A DNA stretch of 64,000 bases from Chloroflexota bacterium (GTDB lineage: Bacteria > Chloroflexota > Limnocylindria > Limnocylindrales > CSP1-4). The notes under the pieces are model-generated. The model did no database searches, had not been told where the DNA came from, and worked only from the letters and a program-made list of their open reading frames with translations. The position numbers and the translations under genes were made by a program. The stretch covers positions 218,434-282,433 of the forward strand of contig JBIQKJ010000001.1 of assembly GCA_044506615.1 (NCBI GenBank). The letters run 5' to 3'. Shown in pieces: positions 30,759 through 43,108 of the stretch. Every line of letters starts with the position of its first letter. Positions within the stretch are counted from its first letter, which is position 1.

Positions 30759-32027
30759 ATGCCTGCCCGTCCCTCGCTCGTCGTCCAGAAGTTCGGCGGT
30801 TCGTCGCTCGCGGACGCCGACCGGATCAAGCGCGTCGCCCGCCGCATCGCCCGTGAGCGGGCCGCCGGCCACGACCTCGTGGTCGTCGTCTCGGCGATGG
30901 GCGACACGACCGACGAGCTGCTCGGCCTGGCCGCCGCGATCACCGACGACCCCGACTTGCGCGAGCTCGACATGCTGCTCGCGACGGGCGAGCACCAGAG
31001 CGCCACGCTCGTGTCGATGGCGCTCCACGCGCTCGGCGTCCCGGCGATCTCGCTGACCGGTCCCCAGGCCGGGATCACGACCGACGGCCGCTACGGCCGG
31101 GCGCGCATCGCCGACATCGAGCCGCGTCGCGTGCGCCAGGAGCTCGACAACGGCAAGGTCGTGATCGTCGCCGGCTTCCAGGGCCTCGCTGCCGACGCCT
31201 CCCTCGATGCCGAGATCACCACGCTCGGCCGTGGCGGGAGCGATACCACCGCGGTCGCCCTCGCCGCCCGGCTGCAAGCCGACCGCTGCCAGATCTTCAC
31301 GGACGTCCGCGGCATCTACACCGCGGACCCGCGGCTCGTCGCCTCGGCCCGTCAGCTGCCGATCGTCGGTTACGAGGAGATGCTCGAGCTCGCCCACCAG
31401 GGCGCCCAGGTCATGCAGACCCGCGCGGTCGAGCTCGGCTGGGTCAACGACGTCGTCATCGAGGTCCTCAGCTCGTTCGAGGACGCCCCCGGCACGCTCA
31501 TCACGGAGGACCCGCTCGTGGAACAGCGCAACAAGGTTCGCGGGCTGGCCCACGACCGGAACGTCGCGAAGCTGACGCTGGTCGAGGTGCCGGACCACCC
31601 CGGCGTCGCGGCGCAGGTCTTCGAGCCGCTCGCGGACGCCGGCATCAACGTCGACATGATCGTCCAGAACGTCGGCCACCACGGCGCGACCGACCTGTCG
31701 TTCACGATCCCGCAGGTCGAGCTCGCCCGCGCCAAGCGCCTGCTCGAGCCGATCGTGCGCGACCTCGGCTTCCGCGAGCTCACGACCGACACCGCGGTGG
31801 CCAAGGTCTCGATCGTCGGGGCCGGGATCCAGAACGCACCGGGCTACGCGGCACGGATGTTCCGGACCCTGGCCGAAGCGGAGGTGAACATCGAGATGAT
31901 CTCGACCTCCGAGATCCGGATCACGACGATCATCGCCGAGGACGCGCTCGAAACCGCGCTTCGCGCGCTCCACGCGGCGTTCGAGCTCGAGCGCCCCGAG
32001 GCCATCGAAGCCGCAGCGGCCGGCTGA
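30759..32027 (+). CDS. lysC: Aspartate kinase
   Basis: VQKFGGSS, VSAMGDTTD and LGRGGSD motifs; two ACT domains. Confidence 0.95.
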   Translation: MPARPSLVVQKFGGSSLADADRIKRVARRIARERAAGHDLVVVVSAMGDTTDELLGLAAAITDDPDLRELDMLLATGEHQSATLVSMALHALGVPAISLTGPQAGITTDGRYGRARIADIEPRRVRQELDNGKVVIVAGFQGLAADASLDAEITTLGRGGSDTTAVALAARLQADRCQIFTDVRGIYTADPRLVASARQLPIVGYEEMLELAHQGAQVMQTRAVELGWVNDVVIEVLSSFEDAPGTLITEDPLVEQRNKVRGLAHDRNVAKLTLVEVPDHPGVAAQVFEPLADAGINVDMIVQNVGHHGATDLSFTIPQVELARAKRLLEPIVRDLGFRELTTDTAVAKVSIVGAGIQNAPGYAARMFRTLAEAEVNIEMISTSEIRITTIIAEDALETALRALHAAFELERPEAIEAAAAG

Positions 32028-32037
32028 CCGGGCCGTC

Positions 32038-32931
32038 GTGACCGACGCATTCCTCGCCCGCCAGGAGCGCTTCGACGCCGTCGGCTCGACCAACGACGTC
32101 GTGCGGGCCTGGCTCGACGCGGGCACGCCCGAGGTGTGCCTCGCCGTCGCCGACGAGCAGACCGCGGGCCGCGGGCGCGCCGGCCGCACCTGGACCGCGC
32201 CGCCCGGCGCGGCGCTCCTGATGTCGCTGGGGTTCCGGCCGGGGTGGCTCGCTCCGGATCGCGTGTGGCGCCTTGCCGCCACGGTCTCGCTGGCGATGGC
32301 CGACGCGGCGGAGGAGGTCGCGGGACTGCCCGACGGGATGATCCGTCTGAAGTGGCCGAACGACCTCGTCGTGGAGACAGTCGGCGAGGCCGTCGTCAAG
32401 CTGAGCGACGCCGACGCGGTCACGGCGGCGAGCCACCTGACGTCGGCGTCCGACGTCCGCAAGCTCGCCGGCGTCCTCGGCGAGTCCGACGGGCTGGGCA
32501 CGGACGACCCGCGCGTGATCGTCGGGATCGGCATCAACGCCGACTGGCAGGAACGCGACTTCCCGCGGGAGCTGGCCGGCACGATGACGTCTCTGCGCGA
32601 GGCGTCGCGCGGGCGGCCCATCGATCGCGCGCTGCTGCTCGACGGGTTCCTCTCGCGGCTCGAGGTCCGCGTCGAGGCGCTGCGCGGGGGCCGCTTCGAC
32701 ATCGCCGACTGGACCGCCCGCCAGCTCACGACCGGCCGGCAGGTGACGCTCGAGACACCGGCCGGGGATGCGGAGAGCGTCCTGGCGCTCGGCGTCGACG
32801 CGCTGTCCGGCGCCCTCGTCGTGGCCGATCCGGCCGCCGCGAGCGGTGAGCGGCCCGTCCACGCCGGCGAGGTCCGCCACGTCCGACTGGCCCCGGCCGG
32901 CGAGCCGACCGCTGCCGCGGGCGGGGTGTAA
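32038..32931 (+). CDS. birA: Biotin-protein ligase (no HTH)
   Basis: STN, QTAGRGRAGRTW, KWPND, KLAGVL and GIGIN motifs. Confidence 0.92.
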   Translation: MTDAFLARQERFDAVGSTNDVVRAWLDAGTPEVCLAVADEQTAGRGRAGRTWTAPPGAALLMSLGFRPGWLAPDRVWRLAATVSLAMADAAEEVAGLPDGMIRLKWPNDLVVETVGEAVVKLSDADAVTAASHLTSASDVRKLAGVLGESDGLGTDDPRVIVGIGINADWQERDFPRELAGTMTSLREASRGRPIDRALLLDGFLSRLEVRVEALRGGRFDIADWTARQLTTGRQVTLETPAGDAESVLALGVDALSGALVVADPAAASGERPVHAGEVRHVRLAPAGEPTAAAGGV

Positions 32932-32935
32932 CACG

Positions 32936-33565
32936 ATGGCCCGGCGCGCGTTGTGGAAGGCGGACCGGTCGGCGGAGCCGCGTGCCCCCCGCATCGCGCA
33001 CCTCGACCGGGACCGCGCGCTCGTCCACGCCGCCCAGGCGGACCCGGCCCGGTTCGAGGCCCTGTACCGGAAGTACCTCGCCCAGGTGTACAGCTACGCG
33101 TACTACGAGCTCCGCGATCACCATGACGCCGAGGACGTGACCGAGCGCACGTTCGTCGCGGCACTCACGAACCTCCACCGCTTCGAGGAGCGCGCGCGGC
33201 CCGAGGATGGGCAGGGCGCCTCGACGTTCCGCGTCTGGCTCTTCCGGATCGCGCGCAACGCGGTGGCGGACCGTCGCCGCGCGACGCGACGCCGGAACGA
33301 GGCCCCGCTCGAGGCCGCGGCGACCGTCTCGACCCCCGACGATGTCGCCGCGACCGTCGTGCGGCGGGACGAGGCCGGCGCGGCGTGGCGGGCGGTCGAT
33401 CGCCTGCGCGGCGATCGGCGTCGGGCGGTGGTGCTCCGCTTCGTGGACGAGCTGTCGACCGCCGAGATCGCCGGCATCCTCGGCCGCTCCGAAGGCGCCG
33501 TTCGGGTCCTGATCCACCGGGCGCTGCGATCGGTGGCGCGCGACCTCGCCGACGACGGCCGGTGA
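32936..33565 (+). CDS. ECF sigma-70 factor
   Basis: DAEDVT, FRVWLFRIARN and region 4 'EIAGILGRSEGAVRVLIHRA'. Confidence 0.9.
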   Translation: MARRALWKADRSAEPRAPRIAHLDRDRALVHAAQADPARFEALYRKYLAQVYSYAYYELRDHHDAEDVTERTFVAALTNLHRFEERARPEDGQGASTFRVWLFRIARNAVADRRRATRRRNEAPLEAAATVSTPDDVAATVVRRDEAGAAWRAVDRLRGDRRRAVVLRFVDELSTAEIAGILGRSEGAVRVLIHRALRSVARDLADDGR

Positions 33566-34071
33566 GCGACGGGTTCGGCGTCCGGCCCGGCGAGGAGATC
33601 GAGGCGCTCGTCGTCGATCGCTACCTCGAATCGCTGCTGGCGCGTGCCGCCGAGGATCCCGCCGTCGAGCGTCGAGCCGGGCGGGTGCGGGCGGACCTGC
33701 GTACTGCCGCCGAGCGCCTGACGGCCGAGCTGCCGAGGCTCCACCCGTCGTTCCGCTTCGAGGAGCGGCTCGCGCTCCGACTCGCCGACGTCGCGGCGTC
33801 GCTGCGCGTGCCGGTCGCGGCGGGCGGCGACGTCGTGGTCGCCTTCGACCGGGCGTCCCCGTCGGATGACGCGCTGTTCGCCGACCTGGCGTCCCACGAC
33901 CCGGAGGCCGACGACCGGCCGGAGCTCGTCCGACCGCTGCTGATCGGCGGCGCGCTCACGTCGGCGGCCCTGTCGCTGGCGGGCGCGGCCTACGTCGCGT
34001 GGCGCCGGACCCACCCCGGCTCTCCGATGGCCCGGGCGGTCCGGGCGGTCGCCCGCGGGAGGCTCGCCTGA
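33562..34071 (+). CDS. Putative membrane-anchored anti-sigma factor
   Basis: GTGA overlap with the sigma gene; PSFRFEERL motif; one C-terminal TM helix. Confidence 0.55.
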   Translation: MSDGFGVRPGEEIEALVVDRYLESLLARAAEDPAVERRAGRVRADLRTAAERLTAELPRLHPSFRFEERLALRLADVAASLRVPVAAGGDVVVAFDRASPSDDALFADLASHDPEADDRPELVRPLLIGGALTSAALSLAGAAYVAWRRTHPGSPMARAVRAVARGRLA

Positions 34072-36002
34072 TGCCGCCGATCAAGCTGCCGTCGTTCCGC
34101 TCGCGCCGGAACGTCTACCCGCCCGATCTGTGGACGAAGTGCCCGTCGTGCGAGGAGATGCTGTTCAACAAGCAGCTCGACAAGGCGCTCCGGGTGTGCC
34201 CGGCGTGCGGCCACCACTTCCGGCTGACCGCGGCGGCCCGCATCGAGCAGCTCGTCGACCACGGCTCGTGGCACGAGCGTGACGGCGGCCTCCAATCGGT
34301 CGACGCCCTCGGGTTCGTCGACCAGAAGCCCTACCCGGATCGGCTCGCCGCCGCCCAGACCGCGACCGGCCTCCGGGACGCCGCGGTGTGGGGGACGGCC
34401 GCGATCGAGCGCACGGACGTCGCTCTGGTCGTGATGGACTTCGGGTTCATGGGCGGCTCGATGGGCGCGGTCGTCGGCGAGAAGGTCACCCGTGCCGCCG
34501 AGCATGCCCTGGCCGCCCGTCAGCCGCTCGTGGTCGTCGCGTCCTCGGGCGGCGCCCGGATGCAGGAGGGGACGCTCGCGCTCATGCAGCTGGCGAAGAC
34601 GCTCGCCGCGCTCGAGCGGTTGCGTGCGGCCGGCGTCCCGTACGTCAGCGTGCTAAGCGACCCGACGACCGGCGGCGTGTTCGCCTCGTTTGCCGCGGTG
34701 GGCGACGTGAACGTCGCCGAGCCGAACGCGCTCATCGGGTTCGCGGGCGCGCGGGTCTCGGCCGGCACGATCGCCCAGGAGCTGCCGCCGGGGTTCCAGC
34801 GCTCCGAGTTCCTGTTCAGCCACGGCTTCGTCGACCGGGTCGTGCCGCGCCACGAGCTGCGTGGCGAGCTCGGCCGGCTGCTGCGCCTCCTCCGGCCGGC
34901 GCCGGCCGGACTGCTCCTCGTCGAGGACGATCCGCTCGCCGGCGGCATCGCCCCGGGCTTCCGGCCGCTGTCGTTCCTCGCCGACCTCGCCGATCGGGTG
35001 GCCGAGGCGGGCTCGAACGGCACGGGACCGCTGGCCGAATCCGAGGAGGCGGGCGACCCCCGGGCCGCCGTCTGGGCTCGCGTCCAACTTGCCCGCAACC
35101 TGCGCCGCCCCCGGACGCTCGAGTTCGTCGAGGCGATGACCGAGGACTTCGTCGAGCTGCACGGCGACCGGCTGTTCGGCGACGACGCCGCGATGGTCGC
35201 GGGTCTTGCCCGGCTCGACGGCCGGGTGGTCGCGGTGGTCGGGCAGCAGAAGGGCGCCGACACCGACGAGAACATCCGGCGCAACTTCGGCATGCCGCAT
35301 CCCGAGGGCTACCGGAAGGCGATGCGGATCATGGAGCTCGCGGAGCGCTTCCGGCTGCCGGTCGTCACGTTCGTCGACGTCCCGGGCGCCCACCCGGGCG
35401 CCGAGTCCGAGGAGCGCGGGATCGCCGAGGCGATCGCCCGGTCCGTCGCGCTGATGACGCGCCTGCGCACGCCGATCGTCGCGGTGATCACCGGCGAAGG
35501 CGGCTCGGGCGGCGCGCTCGCGATCGCGGTCGGGGACATCGTGGTCGCGCTCGAGAACGCGGTCTACTCCGTCATCAGCCCCGAGGGCTGCGCGTCGATC
35601 CTGTGGCGCACCGCCGACGAGGCCTCGACGGCCGCGCTCGCGATGCGCATGACCGCCGCCGACCAGCAGGCACTCGGGGTGATCGACGTCGTCGTCCCCG
35701 AGCCGCCCGAGGGTGCCCACGCGGACGTTCCCGAGACCGCTCGCCGGTTGAAGGCGATCCTGGTCAACCGGCTCGGCGCCCTCGAGGCGGTCCCGATCGA
35801 CGACCTCCTCGAGGCTCGCTACCGACGGTACCGGGAGCTCGGGCCGTACACTGAGGTCGAGACGCCGACCGCCGCGCCCCCGTCCCCGCGAAGCCTCGCC
35901 GATCGGCTGCGCGAGCTGCTCGGGCCCGGCCGGTGGTCGGTCCCGGTCCCCGCCGGCGTGCGTCGGTCCCGGGACGAGCCGCCCGCTCACGAGGAGGTCT
36001 AG
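34071..36002 (+). CDS. accDA: Fused acetyl-CoA carboxylase carboxyltransferase beta+alpha (AccDA)
   Basis: WTKCPSC...CPAC zinc finger and GGARMQEG (AccD), then ELHGDR, NFGMPHPEGYRKA and GEGGSGGAL (AccA), all in one ORF. Confidence 0.93.
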   Translation: MPPIKLPSFRSRRNVYPPDLWTKCPSCEEMLFNKQLDKALRVCPACGHHFRLTAAARIEQLVDHGSWHERDGGLQSVDALGFVDQKPYPDRLAAAQTATGLRDAAVWGTAAIERTDVALVVMDFGFMGGSMGAVVGEKVTRAAEHALAARQPLVVVASSGGARMQEGTLALMQLAKTLAALERLRAAGVPYVSVLSDPTTGGVFASFAAVGDVNVAEPNALIGFAGARVSAGTIAQELPPGFQRSEFLFSHGFVDRVVPRHELRGELGRLLRLLRPAPAGLLLVEDDPLAGGIAPGFRPLSFLADLADRVAEAGSNGTGPLAESEEAGDPRAAVWARVQLARNLRRPRTLEFVEAMTEDFVELHGDRLFGDDAAMVAGLARLDGRVVAVVGQQKGADTDENIRRNFGMPHPEGYRKAMRIMELAERFRLPVVTFVDVPGAHPGAESEERGIAEAIARSVALMTRLRTPIVAVITGEGGSGGALAIAVGDIVVALENAVYSVISPEGCASILWRTADEASTAALAMRMTAADQQALGVIDVVVPEPPEGAHADVPETARRLKAILVNRLGALEAVPIDDLLEARYRRYRELGPYTEVETPTAAPPSPRSLADRLRELLGPGRWSVPVPAGVRRSRDEPPAHEEV

Positions 36003-36005
36003 CGC

Positions 36006-36650
36006 GTGGCAGAACCGCTCCAGCCGGACGTGCCCTCGGGCGACGCGCTGCCCGGGCGCGAGCCGGACCGCGCTGCGGACCACGACGCCATCGATCGGCT
36101 GGCGGAGGAGCTGCTGCCGGCGCTGATCGCGAAGCTCTCGGCGACCGGGCTCGGCGAGCTCGAGGTGCGCCAGGGCGGGTGGCGGGTGCGGCTCCGGCGA
36201 CCGGCCGACGCAGCGTCCCGTGAGCGACGACCGCACGCCGGCCCGCGGAGCCAGCCCGGGCACGCCGGGCACGGGCACGGCCCGGTCCCGGTGGAAGGCC
36301 ACCGGCCTGCGCGCCCGGCGGTCGCAGCGACGAACGGCGCCTCCCCGGGGGCGCACACCGCGGTGGGGCCCGGCCGGCCCGACGGCCACGATCGCTCCGG
36401 CCCGGCCTATGCGACCTCGCCGGCGGTTGGGGTCTTCCGGGTAGCGTCCGGCCTGTCGGCCGGGAACCGCGTCCGGGCCGGCGACCGCCTCGGCGCCGTC
36501 GACATGCTCGGCGTCGCGCAGGAGGTCGTCGCCCCCTGCGACGGGATCGTCGGCGAGCAGGTCGTCGAGTCGGGCGACGCGGTCGAGTACGGACAGGAGC
36601 TCATCGCGATCGAGTTCGCGGCCGCGCCGAGCGCTCACGGGGAGAGCTGA
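36006..36650 (+). CDS. BCCP-like protein lacking the biotinylation lysine (BADC-like)
   Basis: AccB-like N-terminus and biotinyl-domain motifs (SPAVG, GDAVEYGQEL), but EAMK is replaced by DMLG. Confidence 0.85.
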   Translation: MAEPLQPDVPSGDALPGREPDRAADHDAIDRLAEELLPALIAKLSATGLGELEVRQGGWRVRLRRPADAASRERRPHAGPRSQPGHAGHGHGPVPVEGHRPARPAVAATNGASPGAHTAVGPGRPDGHDRSGPAYATSPAVGVFRVASGLSAGNRVRAGDRLGAVDMLGVAQEVVAPCDGIVGEQVVESGDAVEYGQELIAIEFAAAPSAHGES

Positions 36651-38017
36651 TGTTCCGCAAGATCCTCATCGCGAACCGGGGCGAGATCGCGCTCCGCATC
36701 CTCCGGGCGTGTCGTGCCCTCGGGATCGAGTCGGTCGTCGTCTACAGCGAGGCGGATCGGGAATCGCTGCCGGTCCAGCTCGCCGACGAGGCGATCTGCA
36801 TCGGCCCGGCCGACGCACGTCGGTCGTACCTTTCGGCGCCGGCGGTCATCTCGGCCGCGCTCGTCGCCGACTGTGACGCCATCCATCCCGGGTACGGCTT
36901 CCTGTCCGAGGACGAGGGCTTCGCCGAGATCGCGGCGGCGCACGGGCTGACGTTCATCGGCCCGCCTGCCAACGTCCTCGAGCGCTTCGCGAGCAAGGAA
37001 TCCACGCGGCGACTCCTCGCGGAGCACGGCCTCCCGACGATCCCCGGCTCGGACGGGAACCTCCGGGACGACCTCCATGCGCTCGGCGAGGCCGAGCGCA
37101 TCGGCTACCCCGTGCTGATCAAGCCGTCCGCGGGCGGCGGCGGCAAGGGCATGCGGATGGTGCGGACGCCGCGCGAGCTCGAGTCGGCGCTCAAGGTCTG
37201 CCGGTCGGAGGCGAAAGCGGCGTTCGGCGACGACTCGCTGTACCTCGAGAAGTGGCTCGACGAGAACCGCCACGTCGAGGTGCAGGTCGCGGTCGACCGG
37301 TACGGGCACGGCGTCCACCTCGGCGAGCGCGACTGCTCCGTCCAGCGCCGGCACCAGAAGATCATCGAGGAGGCCCCCACGCCAGCGCTCGGGCCCGCGG
37401 CCCGCGAGGACCTCGCCGAGCGTGCGATCCGGGCGATCGTCGCGGCGGGCTACGAGAACGTCGGCACCCTCGAGTTCCTCGTCGATCGCGACGACCAGCC
37501 GTACTTCATCGAGATCAACTGCCGGATCCAGGTGGAGCACCCGGTGACCGAGATGCTGACCGGCATCGACCTGGTCGAGACCCAGATCCGGATCGCGGCC
37601 GGCGAGCCGCTCGGGTTCTCGCAGGCCGACGTCGAGTTCCGCGGCCACGCCATCGAGTTCCGCATCAACGCCGAGGACCCGGAGCACGAATTCCGGCCGG
37701 CATCGGGCGTCGTCGAGCGGTTCCACGTCCCGGGCGGGCCGGGGCTGCGCATGGACACGCACCTGTACGCGGGCTACGAGGTGCCGCCGTACTACGACTC
37801 GCTTCTCGGCAAGCTGATCGTCTGGGGCCCGGACCGTGCGGCCGCGATCGCCCGGAGCCGGGTCGCGCTCGCGGAGCTCCAGGTCGACGGCCTCGTGACG
37901 AACGTCGCGATCCATCGCGCGCTCCTCGAGAACGAGGCGTTCCTCGAGGGCCACATGACGACGAACCTGCTCGACCGCGTCGGCAGCGCGGCCTTCCTGG
38001 CCGCAGCGGCCCGGTGA
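36650..38017 (+). CDS. accC: Biotin carboxylase
   Basis: ANRGEIA, HPGYGFLSE, GGGGKGM, ERDCSVQRRHQK and RIQVEH motifs. Confidence 0.96.
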   Translation: MFRKILIANRGEIALRILRACRALGIESVVVYSEADRESLPVQLADEAICIGPADARRSYLSAPAVISAALVADCDAIHPGYGFLSEDEGFAEIAAAHGLTFIGPPANVLERFASKESTRRLLAEHGLPTIPGSDGNLRDDLHALGEAERIGYPVLIKPSAGGGGKGMRMVRTPRELESALKVCRSEAKAAFGDDSLYLEKWLDENRHVEVQVAVDRYGHGVHLGERDCSVQRRHQKIIEEAPTPALGPAAREDLAERAIRAIVAAGYENVGTLEFLVDRDDQPYFIEINCRIQVEHPVTEMLTGIDLVETQIRIAAGEPLGFSQADVEFRGHAIEFRINAEDPEHEFRPASGVVERFHVPGGPGLRMDTHLYAGYEVPPYYDSLLGKLIVWGPDRAAAIARSRVALAELQVDGLVTNVAIHRALLENEAFLEGHMTTNLLDRVGSAAFLAAAAR

Positions 38018-38108
38018 GGCGGCTGGGAGCGCGCCGCGTGGGTGCAGACCTGCACCGACCGGGTCGCGTGCCCGCCGTTCGACAGGCGACACTGGAAGCC
38101 CACCCCGC

Positions 38109-38576
38109 ATGGAGCCGTTCGTGACCGACGCCATCCACTCGACCTCGGAGATCGAGGGTCTCATCCCGCACCGCTGGCCGTTCCTGCTCGTCGATCGGAT
38201 CGTCGAATACGACCCGGAGGGGAAGCGGATCGTCGGTCTCAAGGGCGTGACCGCGACCGAGTGGTTCTTCCAGGGCCACTTCCCGGGCCTGCCGGTCATG
38301 CCGGGCGTGCTGCAGGTCGAGGCGCTCGCTCAGACGATGGCTGTCTACGTCGCGAAGCAGGAGGGGTTCGGCGACCGCATCGGGCTGTTCGCGGGGATCG
38401 ACGACCTCCGGTTCAAGCGGGTCGTCGTGCCGGGCGACACGCTCCGGCTCGAGGTGACGATGGAGAAGCTCGGCTCGCGCTTCGGGCGCGGGCGCGGCGT
38501 CGCGACCGTCGACGGCGAGGTCGCCTGCGAAGGTCTCCTCTCCTTCATCATCCCGCCCGCGGGGGTCCTCCGATGA
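38109..38576 (+). CDS. fabZ: 3-hydroxyacyl-ACP dehydratase
   Basis: IPHRWPFLLVD and GHFPGLPVMPGVLQVEALAQ. Confidence 0.95.
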   Translation: MEPFVTDAIHSTSEIEGLIPHRWPFLLVDRIVEYDPEGKRIVGLKGVTATEWFFQGHFPGLPVMPGVLQVEALAQTMAVYVAKQEGFGDRIGLFAGIDDLRFKRVVVPGDTLRLEVTMEKLGSRFGRGRGVATVDGEVACEGLLSFIIPPAGVLR

Positions 38577-39319
38577 CCCGGATCGCGGTCTTCTCGGACG
38601 TCCACGGCAACGTCGCCGCGCTCGAGGCGGTCCGACGCGCGGTCGACGCCGCCCGTCCCGACGCCGTGCTCGTCGCGGGCGACCACGTGCTCAACGGCCC
38701 CGAGCCCGCCGCAGCGGTCGACGCGCTCCGCGAGCTCGAGGCCGCGGGCGCGCTCGTTGTCCAGGGCAACACCGACATCGCGGTGGCGGACTTCGACTAC
38801 GCCGCCGCGTTCCCCTGGTTCAGCGACGGGGTGCCGGACTCCTTCGTGGCCGCGGCGGAGTGGGCGCACGACGCGCTCGGCGACGAGCGGGTCGACTGGC
38901 TCCGCCGGCTGCCCGCCGAGCGACGGCTGCGCACCGCGGACGACACGCTCGTGCTGGTCTGCCACGCGTCGCCCGGCTCGCAGACGGCGGGCTTCGACCA
39001 GGCGCTCGATCCGACCGTCACGATCGAGCGCGTGGCGCGGACCGACGCCCGCGTGATCCTGTGCGGCCACACGCACCTCCCCGAGGTCCGCGATCTCGGC
39101 TGGAAGGTCATCGTGAACGGCGGCTCCGCAGGCTACGTCTTCGACGGCGATCCGACCGCGTCCTGGGCGCTGGTCGACATCGTCGACGGCGAGGTCACGG
39201 CCGAGATCAAGCGCACGTCGTTCGACGCGCTCGCCGTCGCGAACGCGATCTCCGCACGGGGGCTGCCCGGCGACGTGTACCGGGCCGCGACGGTCCGCAC
39301 GGGAAAGCTCGTCCGATGA
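38573..39319 (+). CDS. Metallophosphoesterase (calcineurin-like)
   Basis: SDVHGN, GD, GNTD, HASP, GHTH and NGGS motifs. Confidence 0.88.
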   Translation: MTRIAVFSDVHGNVAALEAVRRAVDAARPDAVLVAGDHVLNGPEPAAAVDALRELEAAGALVVQGNTDIAVADFDYAAAFPWFSDGVPDSFVAAAEWAHDALGDERVDWLRRLPAERRLRTADDTLVLVCHASPGSQTAGFDQALDPTVTIERVARTDARVILCGHTHLPEVRDLGWKVIVNGGSAGYVFDGDPTASWALVDIVDGEVTAEIKRTSFDALAVANAISARGLPGDVYRAATVRTGKLVR

Positions 39320-39344
39320 GGGGGGTCGCGTGGAGGGAGGCGGC

Positions 39345-40601
39345 GTGACCACGGGACGCCGCGTGGTCGTGACCGGCATGGGCATGGTGACCGCGCTCGG
39401 CAACGACGTGCCGACGACCTGGGCCGGCCTCATCGAGGGCCGTCCCGGCGTCCGCACGATCGAGGCCTTCGACCCCTCGCGCCTTGCGTCGCGGATCGCC
39501 GGCGAGGTCCGCGACTTCGACGCGAGCCACGTGCTCGAGCGCAAGGATCTCCGCCGCACCGACCGCTACATCCAGTTCGGGCTCGTCGCCGCGCGCGAGG
39601 CGATGGACCAGGCGGGCCTGCCGGCGCGGCTCGAGGGCGACCTCGCCGAGCGCACCGGGGTCATCCTCGGCACGGGCCTCGGCGGCGTCGGCACGCTGAT
39701 CGAGGGGTTCAGCACGAACGCGCTGCGCGGCCCCGATCGGATCAGCCCGTTCCTCGTCCCCATGGGCATCCCGAACGTCGGGTCGGGCCAGGTCGCGATC
39801 AGCTTCGGCATGACCGGCCCGAACTACACGACGGTCTCCGCGTGCGCGACCGGCGGTCATGCGCTCGGCGAGTCGGGCGAGATCATCCGGCGCGGCGACG
39901 CCGACATGATGATCGCCGGCGGCGCCGAGGCCGGGATCCACGAGGCGCTCGTCGGCGGGTTCGCGGCGATGCGCGCGCTGTCGACGCGCAACGACGACCC
40001 GGCCGGGGCGTCGCGGCCGTTCGACCAGGGACGCGACGGGTTCGTGATCGGCGAGGGGGCCGGGGTCGTCGTGCTCGAGGAGCTCGAGCACGCCCGGGCC
40101 CGCGGAGCCACGATCCTCGCGGAGCTCGCGGGCTACGGCGCCACCGCCGACGCGTCGCACATCACGCTCCCGGCCCCGGGCGGCATCGGCGCGGTCCGGG
40201 CGGCGCGGCGGGCGCTCGAGAAGGCCGGCCTCGCCCCCGGGGCGATCGAGCACGTCAACGCGCACGCGACGTCCACGCCGGAGGGCGACAAGGCGGAGCT
40301 CCAGGCGATGCGGACGTTGTTCGGGGACCACGTCCGGAACGTCTCGATCACCTCGAACAAGTCGATGCTCGGTCACACGCTCGGCGCGGCCGGCGCGATC
40401 GAGGCCATCGTGACGATCCTGTCGATGCGCGAAGGCTGCGTCCCCCCGACGATCAACCTCGACGACCCCGATCCGGCCGGCGAGGGCCTCGACCTCACGC
40501 CGAACCGGGCGACCCGCCGGGACATCCGGGCGGCGATCAGCAACTCGTTCGGGTTCGGGGGGCAGAACACCGCGCTCGTGTTCGCCCGGTGGGACGCATG
40601 A
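39345..40601 (+). CDS. fabF: 3-oxoacyl-ACP synthase II
   Basis: SACATG, HATST, GHTLGAAG and SNSFGFGG motifs. Confidence 0.95.
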   Translation: MTTGRRVVVTGMGMVTALGNDVPTTWAGLIEGRPGVRTIEAFDPSRLASRIAGEVRDFDASHVLERKDLRRTDRYIQFGLVAAREAMDQAGLPARLEGDLAERTGVILGTGLGGVGTLIEGFSTNALRGPDRISPFLVPMGIPNVGSGQVAISFGMTGPNYTTVSACATGGHALGESGEIIRRGDADMMIAGGAEAGIHEALVGGFAAMRALSTRNDDPAGASRPFDQGRDGFVIGEGAGVVVLEELEHARARGATILAELAGYGATADASHITLPAPGGIGAVRAARRALEKAGLAPGAIEHVNAHATSTPEGDKAELQAMRTLFGDHVRNVSITSNKSMLGHTLGAAGAIEAIVTILSMREGCVPPTINLDDPDPAGEGLDLTPNRATRRDIRAAISNSFGFGGQNTALVFARWDA

Positions 40602-41134
40602 CCGACGACGTGCGCCTCGATCCGGCTGACGCCGACGAGTCGCTCCAACCCGCGCCGCCGCCGGCCAACGGCGACGATCGAGCGTTGCTCGCACTGATCG
40701 ACCGCCTCGCGGTGCTGCTCGAGCGATCGGACCTGGTCGAGATCGAGGTGGAGGCCGGCGAGACCGGGCTCGTGCTGCGCAAGGCGGCCGCGCTGGCGGC
40801 GCCGGCGGTCGCATCGGGACCCGCTCCGGCCGCCGCGCTCCCGGCGGCGGCGGAGGACCTCGCCGGTCAGGGCGCGACGGACGCGCCGGCCGAGCGCCCG
40901 TCGGTGAAGGCCCCGCTGACCGGGATCTTCTACGGGTCGCCGGCGCCGGGCTCGGCCCCGTACGTGCAGGTCGGGGGCGAGGTCGCGGTCGGCCAGGTCA
41001 TCGGGCTGATCGAGGCGATGAAGCTGTTCAACGAGATCAAGTCGGACCTCGCCGGGCGGGTGGTCCGCGTCGTCGCCGAGAACGGGGCCCTCGTGAAGGC
41101 CCGTCAACCGCTCATCGAGGTCGAGCCGCTGTGA
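40598..41134 (+). CDS. accB: Biotin carboxyl carrier protein
   Basis: APLTGIFYGSPAP and intact IEAMKLFNEI. ATG 40598 overlaps the fabF stop. Confidence 0.92.
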   Translation: MTDDVRLDPADADESLQPAPPPANGDDRALLALIDRLAVLLERSDLVEIEVEAGETGLVLRKAAALAAPAVASGPAPAAALPAAAEDLAGQGATDAPAERPSVKAPLTGIFYGSPAPGSAPYVQVGGEVAVGQVIGLIEAMKLFNEIKSDLAGRVVRVVAENGALVKARQPLIEVEPL

Positions 41135-42324
41135 CCGAGCCCCGTTACGCGCACGTCACCGGCTGGGGCCGCTACGCCCCGGCCCAGGTCCTCACGAACG
41201 CCGATCTCGAGCGGATGGTCGACACGTCCGACGAATGGATCCGGACCCGCACGGGGATCCGCGAGCGACGCGTGGCGGCGGCCCACGAGACGACCGCATC
41301 GATGGGCGCGGTCGCGGGCCTGCGCGCGATCCGGACCGCCGGGCTCGACCCGGACGACATCGATCTGATCCTGCTCGCGACCCTGACGCCCGACTACTGG
41401 ATGCCGTCCACGGCGGCGCTCGTGAAGGAGGCGATCGGCAACACGCGGGCGGCGGCGATGGACGTCGCCGCCGCGTGCTCGGGCTTCGTGTATGCGTTCT
41501 CCACAGCCCAGGCGTACATCGCGAGCGGGCTCGCGAGGCACGTGCTCGTGATCGGATCGGAGCTGCTCACCCGGTTCCTCGACTACACCGACCGGAGCAC
41601 CTGCATCCTCTTCGGCGACGGGGCCGGCGCGGTCGTGCTGTCGGCGTCCGACCAGCCCGGCGGTGCGCTCGGGACCGAGCTGACGACCGAGCCGCAGGGG
41701 GCCTACATGATCTGGCTGCCTGCCGGCGGGGCGAAGGCGCCGCCCTCGCCGGGGACGATCGCGCGCGGCGAGCACTACATCCGGATGGAGGGGAACCAGA
41801 CCTACCGGTTCGCCACGAAGACGATGGCCACGACCGCGCTCGAGTCGATCCGCCGGTCGGGGATCGACCCCGCGGACGTCGAGCTGTTCATCCCGCACCA
41901 GGCCAACGTCCGGATCATCGAGGCGGTCGCCAAGGGGCTCGGGCTGCCGATGGACCGCATGTACGTGAACCTCGACCGGTACGGGAACACGTCGGCGGCA
42001 TCGGTGCCGATCGCGCTCGCCGAGGCCGTCAACGAGGGCCGCCTCTCGGTCGGCGACCACGTGACGCTCGTCGCCTTCGGGGCCGGCTTCACGTCCGGGG
42101 CGGTGACGATCCAGTGGACCGCCGACCCGGCTCGCGGTCGCGCCGGCGACGCGGCGGTCGACCCGGCCGACGTCCGGGTCCGGCTGCCGGTCGACTGGGA
42201 TTCGGTCGACCCGATCCCGGCGGCGCTCGCGGACCTGATGGCGCGGCCGGGGCCGGTCGACGTGCCGCTCGACGACGTCGTGCCGGGCGAGCCGGCGCGC
42301 GCCGGCGAGCCGGTCGGCCGATGA
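41131..42324 (+). CDS. fabH: 3-oxoacyl-ACP synthase III
   Basis: AACSGF, FGDGAGA, PHQAN and GNTSAAS motifs. Confidence 0.95.
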   Translation: MTEPRYAHVTGWGRYAPAQVLTNADLERMVDTSDEWIRTRTGIRERRVAAAHETTASMGAVAGLRAIRTAGLDPDDIDLILLATLTPDYWMPSTAALVKEAIGNTRAAAMDVAAACSGFVYAFSTAQAYIASGLARHVLVIGSELLTRFLDYTDRSTCILFGDGAGAVVLSASDQPGGALGTELTTEPQGAYMIWLPAGGAKAPPSPGTIARGEHYIRMEGNQTYRFATKTMATTALESIRRSGIDPADVELFIPHQANVRIIEAVAKGLGLPMDRMYVNLDRYGNTSAASVPIALAEAVNEGRLSVGDHVTLVAFGAGFTSGAVTIQWTADPARGRAGDAAVDPADVRVRLPVDWDSVDPIPAALADLMARPGPVDVPLDDVVPGEPARAGEPVGR

Positions 42325-42358
42325 GGATGGTCGCGAGCACCGACGCAGGAGGGGCGAC

Positions 42359-43108
42359 ATGATCGACCTGGCGGGCAAGAGCGCGCTGATCACCGGGGGT
42401 TCGCGCGGGATCGGGCGGGCGATCGCGCTGCGGCTCGCGGCCCAGGGCGCCGACATCGCGTTCAGCTACAAGGGCAACGAGGCCGCGGCGACGGCGACCG
42501 CCGGGGAGATCGAGGCGCTCGGTCGGAAGGCCGTGCCGATCCAGGGGGACGTCCGGGATCCCGAGTCGGCCGAGGCGGTCGTCAAGGGCGCGCTCGAGGC
42601 GTTCGGGAAGATCGACATCCTCGTCAACAACGCCGGGATCACCCGCGACGACCTGATCATGCGGATGACGCCCGAGGCCTGGCGCGACGTGCTCGAGACA
42701 AACCTGTTCGGGGCGTTCTGGACGACCAAGGCCGTCACCAGGCCGATGCTCAAGGCCAAGGGCGGGCGGATCGTCAACATCACCTCGGTGTCCGGGCAGG
42801 CCGGGCAGATGGGCCAGGCGAACTACTCGTCGGCGAAGGCCGGGCTGATCGGCCTGACGAAGGCGACTGCCCGCGAGCTCGCTTCGCGCGGCATCACCTG
42901 CAACGCCGTCGCGCCGGGCTTCGTCCTGACCGAGCTGACCGAGAGCTTGCCGGAGGACCTGAAGGCACAGCTGATCGAGCGGACGCCGCTCGGGCGGTTC
43001 GGGACGGTCGAGGAGATCGCGGCGGCCGTCGCGTTCCTCGCCAGCGACGAGGCCTCGTACATCACCGGCCAGGTGCTGGCGGTGGACGGCGGCCTGGTCA
43101 TGATGTAG
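42359..43108 (+). CDS. fabG: 3-oxoacyl-ACP reductase
   Basis: TGGSRGIG, NNAGITRD and GQANYSSAKAG motifs. Confidence 0.93.
   Translation: MIDLAGKSALITGGSRGIGRAIALRLAAQGADIAFSYKGNEAAATATAGEIEALGRKAVPIQGDVRDPESAEAVVKGALEAFGKIDILVNNAGITRDDLIMRMTPEAWRDVLETNLFGAFWTTKAVTRPMLKAKGGRIVNITSVSGQAGQMGQANYSSAKAGLIGLTKATARELASRGITCNAVAPGFVLTELTESLPEDLKAQLIERTPLGRFGTVEEIAAAVAFLASDEASYITGQVLAVDGGLVMM

Follow-up and report, generated by a model that had tools for sequence, protein, structure and literature searches.

A lysine-less AccB paralog conserved between accDA and accC in Limnocylindria, a candidate non-catalytic subunit of acetyl-CoA carboxylase

The committed step of fatty-acid synthesis is catalysed by heteromeric acetyl-CoA carboxylase (ACC), an enzyme targeted by antibiotics and herbicides. 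Non-biotinylated paralogs of its biotin carboxyl carrier protein (BCCP, the product of accB), the BADC proteins, have to our knowledge been recognised as subunits of the enzyme in plants and green algae alone. Here we analyse a bacterial gene, called X throughout, that encodes an AccB paralog without the biotinylation lysine and lies between accDA and accC in a stretch of 64,000 nucleotides from a Chloroflexota bacterium of the class Limnocylindria (GenBank assembly GCA_044506615.1, contig JBIQKJ010000001.1, positions 218,434 to 282,433 of the forward strand; hereafter the window).

In the passages of the plant literature that deal with them, BADCs are described as lacking the AMKL motif or the conserved lysine (PMC11926652, PMC13585458). 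They are reported there to bind biotin carboxylase (BC), and have been proposed either to inhibit the enzyme or to be the "glue" by which BC and BCCP assemble (PMC11926652, PMC12706156, PMC13585458), the field being split between the two models (PMC11926652, PMC13585458). For the tubes formed by E. coli ACC, passages of PMC11160672 place the biotinyl domain of BCCP at a non-catalytic site of BC, as in 4HR7, and in additional contact with the N-terminus of AccD; the N-terminal 30 residues of BCCP, predicted to form an alpha/beta/beta module, are said to oligomerise and to tether the carriers. Full-text literature searches, with most subscription journals outside their coverage, found no lysine-less BCCP paralog reported in bacteria, and the passages searched of a paper on Chloroflexus ACC mention none.

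The X reading frame starts with GTG, with GGAGG about 10 nucleotides upstream. The TAG of accDA (36000-36002) ends 3 nucleotides ahead of this start and the TGA of X (36648-36650) overlaps the ATG of accC (36650) by one base, a spacing of start and stop codons suited to coupled translation. On alignment with the AccB of the window, Gly169 of X falls opposite the Lys of EAMKLFNE, and a profile alignment pairs it with the Lys of chain 4hr7_B, the BCCP of E. coli; X thus lacks the acceptor lysine in the (E/A)-M-K-(M/L) hairpin of functional AccB/BCCP proteins. There is no Lys in the carrier domain, the only one in the protein being K43 in the N-terminal part. Residues 138-202 pass the Pfam Biotin_lipoyl profile (PF00364) marginally, at 23.3 bits against a gathering cut-off of 22.1, and the score of X against the TIGR00531 BCCP profile (43.2 bits) is far under the cut-off of 115.2, which the true AccB of the window also falls short of, at 102.5 bits; NCBIfam has no family dedicated to X. 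The C-terminal motif is AVEYGQ in X as against LVKARQ in the catalytic AccB of the window. A preliminary description of this DNA, made from its letters, had reported an open reading frame (ORF) between accDA and accC whose stop overlaps the accC start, Gly at the lysine position, no lysine in the domain, an AccB-type N-terminus and a separate intact accB downstream. These observations are borne out throughout, the N-terminus by the profile alignment to 4hr7_B together with a predicted helix and hairpin, and the downstream accB by its EAMKLFNEI motif.

The substitution is a fixed character of a large family, far outside what chance could produce. Of 8000 candidates scored in a protein database search with X, 3248 match at E<=1e-3; in all of the best 120, whose identity is 56-100%, Gly occupies the lysine site. 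When 1.84 billion representatives were searched with a profile, 160 clusters (50% identity) reached E<=1e-30 and 472 reached E<=1e-10; Gly is present at the site in 143 of 150 representatives (50% identity), the other seven being truncated or frameshifted predictions. From a scan of species-representative genomes, which yielded at least 543 encoding stretches among at least 600 pattern matches, 80 loci were examined, nearly all of them titled as Chloroflexota or Limnocylindria metagenome-assembled genomes (MAGs). Three of the 80 end ahead of the carrier domain, and the 77 that cover the site all have Gly (76 by motif, L074 by eye). As the loci were found via two peptide patterns, one of which contains VEYGQ, the invariance of VEYGQ in this set is not independent evidence; its conservation in the protein database search and in the profile search is. 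An X match was found in 45/45 sampled genomes of the window's class (f1 23/23, f2 4/4, f3 16/16, f4 2/2), four of which are only 1.1-1.4 Mb in size, with best E-values per genome ranging from 6e-57 to 2e-9 (all E<=2.1e-9). The overall X tally, 224/401, includes one unpublished genome, G145, on which no specific claim rests.

The position of the gene is equally fixed. Among the loci with sufficient flanking sequence, accDA lies directly upstream of X in 66/66 (those with at least 2.2 kb upstream), accC lies downstream in 66/66, and a lysine-bearing accB follows further downstream in 56/56 (those with more than 5.4 kb downstream). Among the loci listed, the only insertion between X and accC is that of fabD, which is found in the 12 loci of the most divergent X clade, where the inserted gene of 321 amino acids matches Acyl_transf_1 (tested on L077 6432-7397 and L110 7907-8830). 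The L110 locus additionally carries a large inserted gene of tetratricopeptide repeat/cyclase type on the opposite strand. The preliminary description had proposed looking for conserved accDA-X-accC synteny with an invariant lysine-to-glycine change, and both halves of this expectation hold, in 66/66 loci on each side and in 77/77 sites.

Loss of the catalytic lysine, a BCCP score of 43 against 115 bits and a fast-evolving linker are what one would expect if X were a dying duplicate of accB, redundant beside the accB of the fab cluster. This reading is contradicted by the conservation data, and we regard it as hardly credible: the X frame is intact in every locus bar a few that are apparently frameshifted in MAG assemblies, invariant residues persist across relatives down to about 35% identity, the family spans the 160 clusters mentioned above, and X is retained in every sampled genome of the class, including the four small ones. 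In the three closest ortholog pairs, the ratio of non-synonymous to synonymous substitution rates (dN/dS) is 0.20-0.25 for the whole gene, 0.10 for the C-terminal barrel and 0.25-0.58 for the linker, and in two of these pairs it is 0.08-0.09 for the N-terminal module (the third pair is considered below). Medians over all 1129 ortholog pairs were discarded, as dS reaches a plateau at about 0.6-0.7 in this GC-rich lineage. A DNA contig of a related strain (X5 record 22) spans 35565-36693 with 58 substitutions and no indel. Because Gly is invariant, the synteny is fixed, dN/dS is low and the contig of this relative is free of indels, X is a maintained gene under purifying selection in both folded modules and not a relic. 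Retention of the lysine in orthologs and neutral decay, two of the outcomes that the preliminary description had set against its own proposal, are both absent (Gly in 77/77, dN/dS of about 0.1 in the barrel).

X and the acc genes appear split into several frames at seven loci of MAG assemblies (L023, L062, L070, L072, L089, L091, L092); assembly indels are likelier here than real pseudogenes, because the same loci show broken accC and accDA. The lone RNA run among the 22 runs listed (X20, word share 0.05) has its only near-identical piece in accDA, at 34514-34737, with 1 difference, and contains nothing informative over X.

A structure model of X built from 51 orthologs (mean predicted local distance difference test score, pLDDT, 72.5) comprises an N-terminal module of one helix and one hairpin, a linker (residues 64-132) modelled with low confidence, and a C-terminal barrel modelled with high confidence. 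Of the solved structures, that of BC-bound E. coli BCCP is the closest in sequence (4hr7_B, E 8.8e-18), the alignment extending from the N-terminal module, where it begins at chain residue 28, to the C-terminus. The best Foldseek matches of the barrel are 1bdo (top, template modelling score to target 0.82), 2evb and 4hr7_G, with scores of 0.82-0.91. In the hidden Markov model sequence alignment, six gap positions fall in the thumb relative to E. coli BCCP. Across the 51 orthologs, P38, L40, E51, E53 and R62 are invariant in the N-terminal module, as are V141, G142, G153, G159, L168, G169, G190 and V193-Q197 in the barrel. The barrel fold being intact in the model, X might conceivably still act as a carrier with its cofactor on another residue. 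No Lys is present in the domain of the window's X, of 88/120 close homologs or of 115/136 representatives, and where one is present it is never at the hairpin tip; Cys178 is not conserved among homologs, and the thumb is apparently shortened. We therefore consider carriage on another residue extremely improbable.

The His-rich linker to which the preliminary description drew attention is confirmed, with HAGHGHG at residues 86-92. In 23 close homologs G85, H86, G88, H89, G90, H91 and E97 are invariant, and GHxGHGH is found in 116/120 close homologs, the remaining four having near variants; it is found in only 15/152 rows of the wider X family (the profile-search set at 50% identity). The QPGHAGHGH...EGHR pattern is thus invariant in close relatives amid a fast-evolving, apparently disordered linker (36252-36305), which would suit a short functional motif such as a metal site or a partner-binding peptide. 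The motif cannot be the core of the mechanism of X, because only one subclade has it and the greater part of the family does not.

Outside the class, weaker X matches were followed in 20 regions picked for good E-values. In many of these regions the match is an AccB-like gene that lacks the lysine and has G, N or R in its place. In the eight such regions that are annotated, the gene follows pepP and efp in seven and precedes xseA in seven. A less biased survey covered 1 kb downstream of efp in 87 genomes outside the class (92 regions; of 88 genomes with an efp match, the unpublished G038 was left out), while the efp tally of 99/101 includes G038, on which no specific claim rests. A BCCP-like gene is present within this 1 kb in 39/87 genomes, and none was found there in 48/87. 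The lysine column of these efp-adjacent genes is K in 7/39 (families f5, f22 and f31) and another residue in 32/39 (Q 9, N 8, G 8, D 4, M 1, A 1, H 1; 11 families). One efp-linked subfamily of 120 clusters has no lysine at the site (Q 76, H 21, S 7, N 6, G 3, T 3, R 2, D 1, one gap), and all organism names given for its sources are Chloroflexota. Gly as a general requirement at the site is ruled out, since Q, N, D, H, A, M, R, S and T also occur there among relatives. Lysine-less efp neighbours were recorded at L097-L107, L113, L114, L122-L126, L134, L140-L144 and L154-L233, from at least 11 other families.

The lysine-less efp-linked genes always carry a VEYGQ-type C-terminal motif. This motif is present in the efp-linked AccBs, while the type-2 AccBs found in other Chloroflexota lack it; in E. 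coli the corresponding residues are VEFDE. A lysine-bearing AccB is encoded elsewhere in 10/10 checked genomes that have a lysine-less efp-linked copy. In 5/5 genomes with a lysine-bearing copy linked to efp or xseA, no second AccB of the EAMK(V/L)FNE type was found, their other matches being EAMKMEN-type domains. One genome (G287) has the order pepP-efp-AccB(Lys)-xseA, which is presumably the original state. In the genome of the window, pepP, efp and xseA are adjacent outside the window, on contig C32 at about 105409-109170, and the 548-bp gap between efp and xseA contains no AccB-type ORF.

Two trees of Chloroflexota sequences only were built by a short search, with Shimodaira-Hasegawa-like approximate likelihood ratio test (SH-aLRT) support and midpoint rooting, the second keeping the lysine column. 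In both, the accB of the window groups with the lysine-bearing AccBs that are not linked to efp (95 and 96, both starred branches), and X forms a clade of its own (91, and 99 on a starred branch). In the first tree, which carried a long-branch warning, X joins the efp-linked lysine-less family f21 (98, starred); in the second it joins the efp-linked lysine-less families f13, f21, f32 and f37 with an SH-aLRT of 90. The second tree needs at least four changes to account for the losses of the lysine, and its starred branches force only one. We place X in the efp-linked lineage of Chloroflexota AccBs, and read the lysine-less forms as a phylum-wide pseudo-carrier lineage which has been relocated in the window's class. 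In this scenario, a second AccB would have taken over catalysis in much of the phylum, while the old efp-linked AccB would have lost its lysine yet been kept; in the class of the window, the efp-linked AccB would then have moved into the acc operon and become X.

In 32 of the 39 efp-adjacent cases outside the class, the lysine-less gene sits next to efp, with xseA on its other side wherever that is seen and no acc gene in the vicinity. This could be taken to mean that X works outside ACC, for instance with EF-P, with another carboxylase or as a transcriptional autoregulator acting through its N-terminal module, its position in the operon being incidental. The genome does contain two other biotin carboxylases with apparently fused carriers, and E. 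coli AccB represses its own operon. The AccB N-terminus is mentioned in connection with transcriptional repression in passages of PMC11160672. We nevertheless judge a function outside ACC improbable. The occurrence of lysine-bearing AccB beside efp in 7/39 genomes and in G287 identifies this as an ordinary place for functional AccB, so the efp context argues for AccB ancestry and not for a function with EF-P. Moreover, X keeps the AccB-type VEYGQ surface, the order accDA-X-(fabD)-accC is fixed in all 66 loci, and a co-folding prediction of X with AccC passed its controls.

In that prediction, for which each partner was given a 51-row alignment and three controls were run, AccC and X scored 0.74 (runs 0.74, 0.74 and 0.77) against 0.00 for the best control; the mark was attained by 58/80 solved complexes and by 2/110 mismatched pairs. 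The runs share at least 40% of contacts, and the partner pLDDT is at least 58. The confident interface comprises residues 140-143, 167-168, 170 and 192-197 of X and residues 34, 49-53, 59, 64-65, 67-69, 71-73 and 98 of AccC, so that the predicted contact lies on the N-terminal domain of AccC and not at the ATP-grasp active site. On the X side it consists largely of invariant or near-invariant columns (V141, G142, L168, V193, E194, Y195, G196 and Q197). The prediction supports, without proving, the binding to AccC that the preliminary description had suggested modelling.

On this basis we propose that the X barrel would dock onto the N-terminal domain of AccC, off the active site, via its invariant AVG / ML-G / AVEYGQ surface, in a manner resembling the non-catalytic biotin carboxylase site where E. 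coli BCCP binds. Its N-terminal alpha/beta/beta module may pair with its counterpart in the catalytic AccB. In that arrangement X would permanently fill a docking site and serve as a tether, assembling the holoenzyme and retaining the mobile AccB, as in the "glue" model for plant BADC. As to whether the net effect is activation or competition with AccB, we favour assembly. A protein that keeps the predicted AccC-docking surface yet cannot carry biotin might also be a decoy, an inhibitor that competes with AccB for AccC and lowers ACC flux, with the His motif, strictly kept in 116/120 close relatives, perhaps providing pH or metal tuning in the subclade. Passages of PMC13585458 describe plant and algal BADCs as sequestering BC at low pH, although the inhibitor model is disputed in the plant field itself, in passages of PMC11926652. 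The predicted contact, however, is not at the active site, most of the X family has no His motif, and co-translation with the catalytic subunits from a fixed operon position in every genome is more in keeping with a constitutive, stoichiometric subunit than with a conditional brake; we consider the decoy unlikely.

Several points weigh against X being an ACC subunit. No acc gene lies near the lysine-less gene in the eight annotated regions from other Chloroflexota, and because acc genes are missing beside the efp-linked copies, an ACC role for the wider lysine-less family is read from sequence features alone. The co-fold pass may reflect memory of solved complexes, because BC-BCCP complexes have been solved (4HR7 and entries of the 8UZ2 type are among the PDB matches); what it demonstrates is likeness and not binding. 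The N-terminal module of X, which would contact AccB in our proposal, is outside the confident co-fold interface. X diverges far more rapidly than AccC, with a mean column identity of 36% as against 82%, and in the closest ortholog pair (L052/L053, dS 0.17) dN/dS of the N-terminal module is 0.76. The dN/dS values rest on three pairs, dS being saturated for nearly all others, and the genomes compared are MAGs, that of the window being 86% complete.

Taking these points into account, we think it probable, though well short of certain, that X, a non-biotinylatable BCCP paralog, serves as a non-catalytic subunit of ACC and derives from the old efp-linked AccB. The preliminary description had proposed a non-biotinylatable regulatory or assembly subunit. 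Its observation is confirmed, and its reading is right in outline and applies more widely in the phylum than it had supposed: the part that stands is the conserved, selected, lysine-less AccB paralog in the ACC operon, for which regulation and assembly are both candidate roles. More tentatively, and as a possible elaboration that we hold to be doubtful, two jobs of BCCP may have been split in this phylum, with the lysine-less efp-linked AccB as a fixed anchor that fills the non-catalytic docking site of biotin carboxylase and nucleates the N-terminal oligomer, and the second AccB responsible for catalysis. In Limnocylindria the anchor would have moved to the accDA-accC operon and its hairpin tip been fixed as Gly, with one subclade gaining a metal- or pH-responsive His/Glu motif, the whole being an independent counterpart of BADC.

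X is embedded in a wider cluster (30759-43108) with the order (aspartokinase)-birA-sigma-accDA-X-accC-(metallophosphoesterase)-fabF-accB-fabH-fabG, whose features are collected in Table 1. The cluster is rigidly conserved and joins a biotin ligase to the initiation of lipid synthesis: in the 46 loci with full flanks (among L017-L096), birA, the sigma factor gene, fabF and fabH are each present in 46/46, fabG in 38/46 and the metallophosphoesterase gene in 35/46. The ATG of the true accB overlaps the fabF stop, and its own stop overlaps the GTG of fabH. The fused AccDA has a zinc ribbon at amino acids 45-70. Three loci with the full accDA-X-accC arrangement are titled Methylomirabilota, Verrucomicrobiia and Solirubrobacterales (L020, L021 and L076); they are probably mis-binned Chloroflexota contigs, because the contigs are short (2.6-11 kb).

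Table 1. Features of the X locus and its surroundings (coordinates in the window; residue numbers are those of X unless stated otherwise)
Feature	Coordinates	Strand	Basis
birA-like biotin-protein ligase	32038..32931	+	TIGR00121 (G000:C30:250504-251307 = window 32071-32874), Pfam BPL_LplA_LipB
Extracytoplasmic function (ECF)-type sigma factor, putative start; listed ORF overlaps birA	32768..33565	+	Pfam Sigma70_r2, r4_2
Fused accD-accA carboxyltransferase, putative start	33999..36002	+	TIGR00515 (amino acids 36-300), TIGR00513 (amino acids 358-618)
X, lysine-less AccB/BCCP paralog, 214 amino acids	36006..36650	+	ORF, profile, homolog and locus comparisons
X residues 19-63, AccB-type N-terminal module (helix 19-46, hairpin 52-63)	36060..36194	+	predicted structure
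X residues 83-100, QPGHAGHGHGPVPVEGHR, His-rich motif in linker predicted disordered	36252..36305	+	pLDDT ~50-57
X residues 133-205, predicted biotinyl-type beta-barrel, no lysine, thumb apparently shortened	36402..36620	+	pLDDT 92-98
Gly169 codon (GGC) at the biotinyl-lysine position of X	36510-36512	+	alignments
accC, biotin carboxylase	36650..38017	+	TIGR00514, 628 bits
Metallophosphoesterase	38042..39319	+	Pfam Metallophos_2
fabF	39330..40601	+	TIGR03150, 569 bits
True accB, EAMKLFNEI, 178 amino acids	40598..41134	+	TIGR00531, 102.5 bits
fabH	41131..42324	+	TIGR00747
fabG	42359..43108	+	TIGR01830

The genome itself (3.48 Mb, 33 contigs) encodes seven biotinyl/lipoyl domains and three biotin carboxylases, two of which apparently have their own carrier domains and nearby carboxyltransferases. 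These two further biotin carboxylases with close biotinyl domains, and a third carboxyltransferase beside a separate biotinyl domain, are found on contigs C6, C26 and C33. X and accB are the only stand-alone genes of carrier type, and a single birA was found, the one 3 kb upstream of accDA.

Members of the X family and their efp-linked relatives appear in databases as "hypothetical protein", "biotin/lipoyl-containing protein" or "biotin carboxyl carrier protein", and the X clusters of the ESM Atlas are all labelled "hypothetical protein" and assigned to Chloroflexota. Judged by sequence, the label "biotin carboxyl carrier protein" (used by JGI and in one NCBI record) is wrong, a common annotation error, because these proteins cannot be biotinylated. 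At least 56 species-level genomes encode X beside a catalytic AccB, and relatives of X are found across the whole phylum. If this conserved, operon-encoded pseudo-carrier is a true subunit of bacterial ACC, then the same solution has arisen more than once. The accDA, X, accC and accB genes constitute a four-gene system that could be reconstituted in E. coli to study the role of pseudo-carriers; should the division of jobs between anchor and catalytic carrier be real, this would be a simple system in which to settle whether pseudo-carriers assemble or inhibit ACC.

Among known systems, the mycobacterial carboxylase regulators MSMEG_0435-0436 were considered as an analogue of X and ruled out, being KipA/KipI homologs and not BCCP-like. 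The epsilon subunits AccE and PccE of actinobacterial acyl-CoA carboxylases are likewise not known to be homologous to BCCP. They are small and non-catalytic and are said in passages of PMC11926652 to glue the holoenzyme together. Their likeness to X would be one of function only, as proposed non-catalytic glue. E. coli AccB/BCCP (TIGR00531; PDB 4HR7, 1BDO) shares with X the overall plan of an N-terminal alpha/beta/beta module, a flexible linker and a C-terminal barrel; in X, however, the Lys of the MKM hairpin is replaced by Gly, the thumb shows a six-residue gap in the alignment, the linker is His-rich instead of Ala/Pro-rich, and VEYGQ stands where E. coli has VEFDE.

The nearest relatives of X in the trees are the lysine-less efp-linked proteins of Chloroflexota, which likewise have the AccB N-terminal module and VEYGQ, are without the lysine and occur alongside an AccB that has it. 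They differ from X in their pepP-efp-gene-xseA context, as opposed to the acc operon, and in the residue at the site, which is Q, N, G, D, H, A, M or R in these proteins and always Gly in X. With plant BADC, X has in common that it is a BCCP homolog without the biotinylation lysine that occurs beside a catalytic BCCP, and the likeness may extend to contact with BC, AccC being the predicted partner on the side of X. In contrast to BADC, X is bacterial and encoded in an operon, between accDA and accC. The likeness is probably convergent, because X groups inside the efp-linked AccB lineage of Chloroflexota. The term "BADC-like" used in the preliminary description is therefore apt as an analogy, in the loss of the lysine and the coexistence with a true AccB, but not as a statement of kinship.

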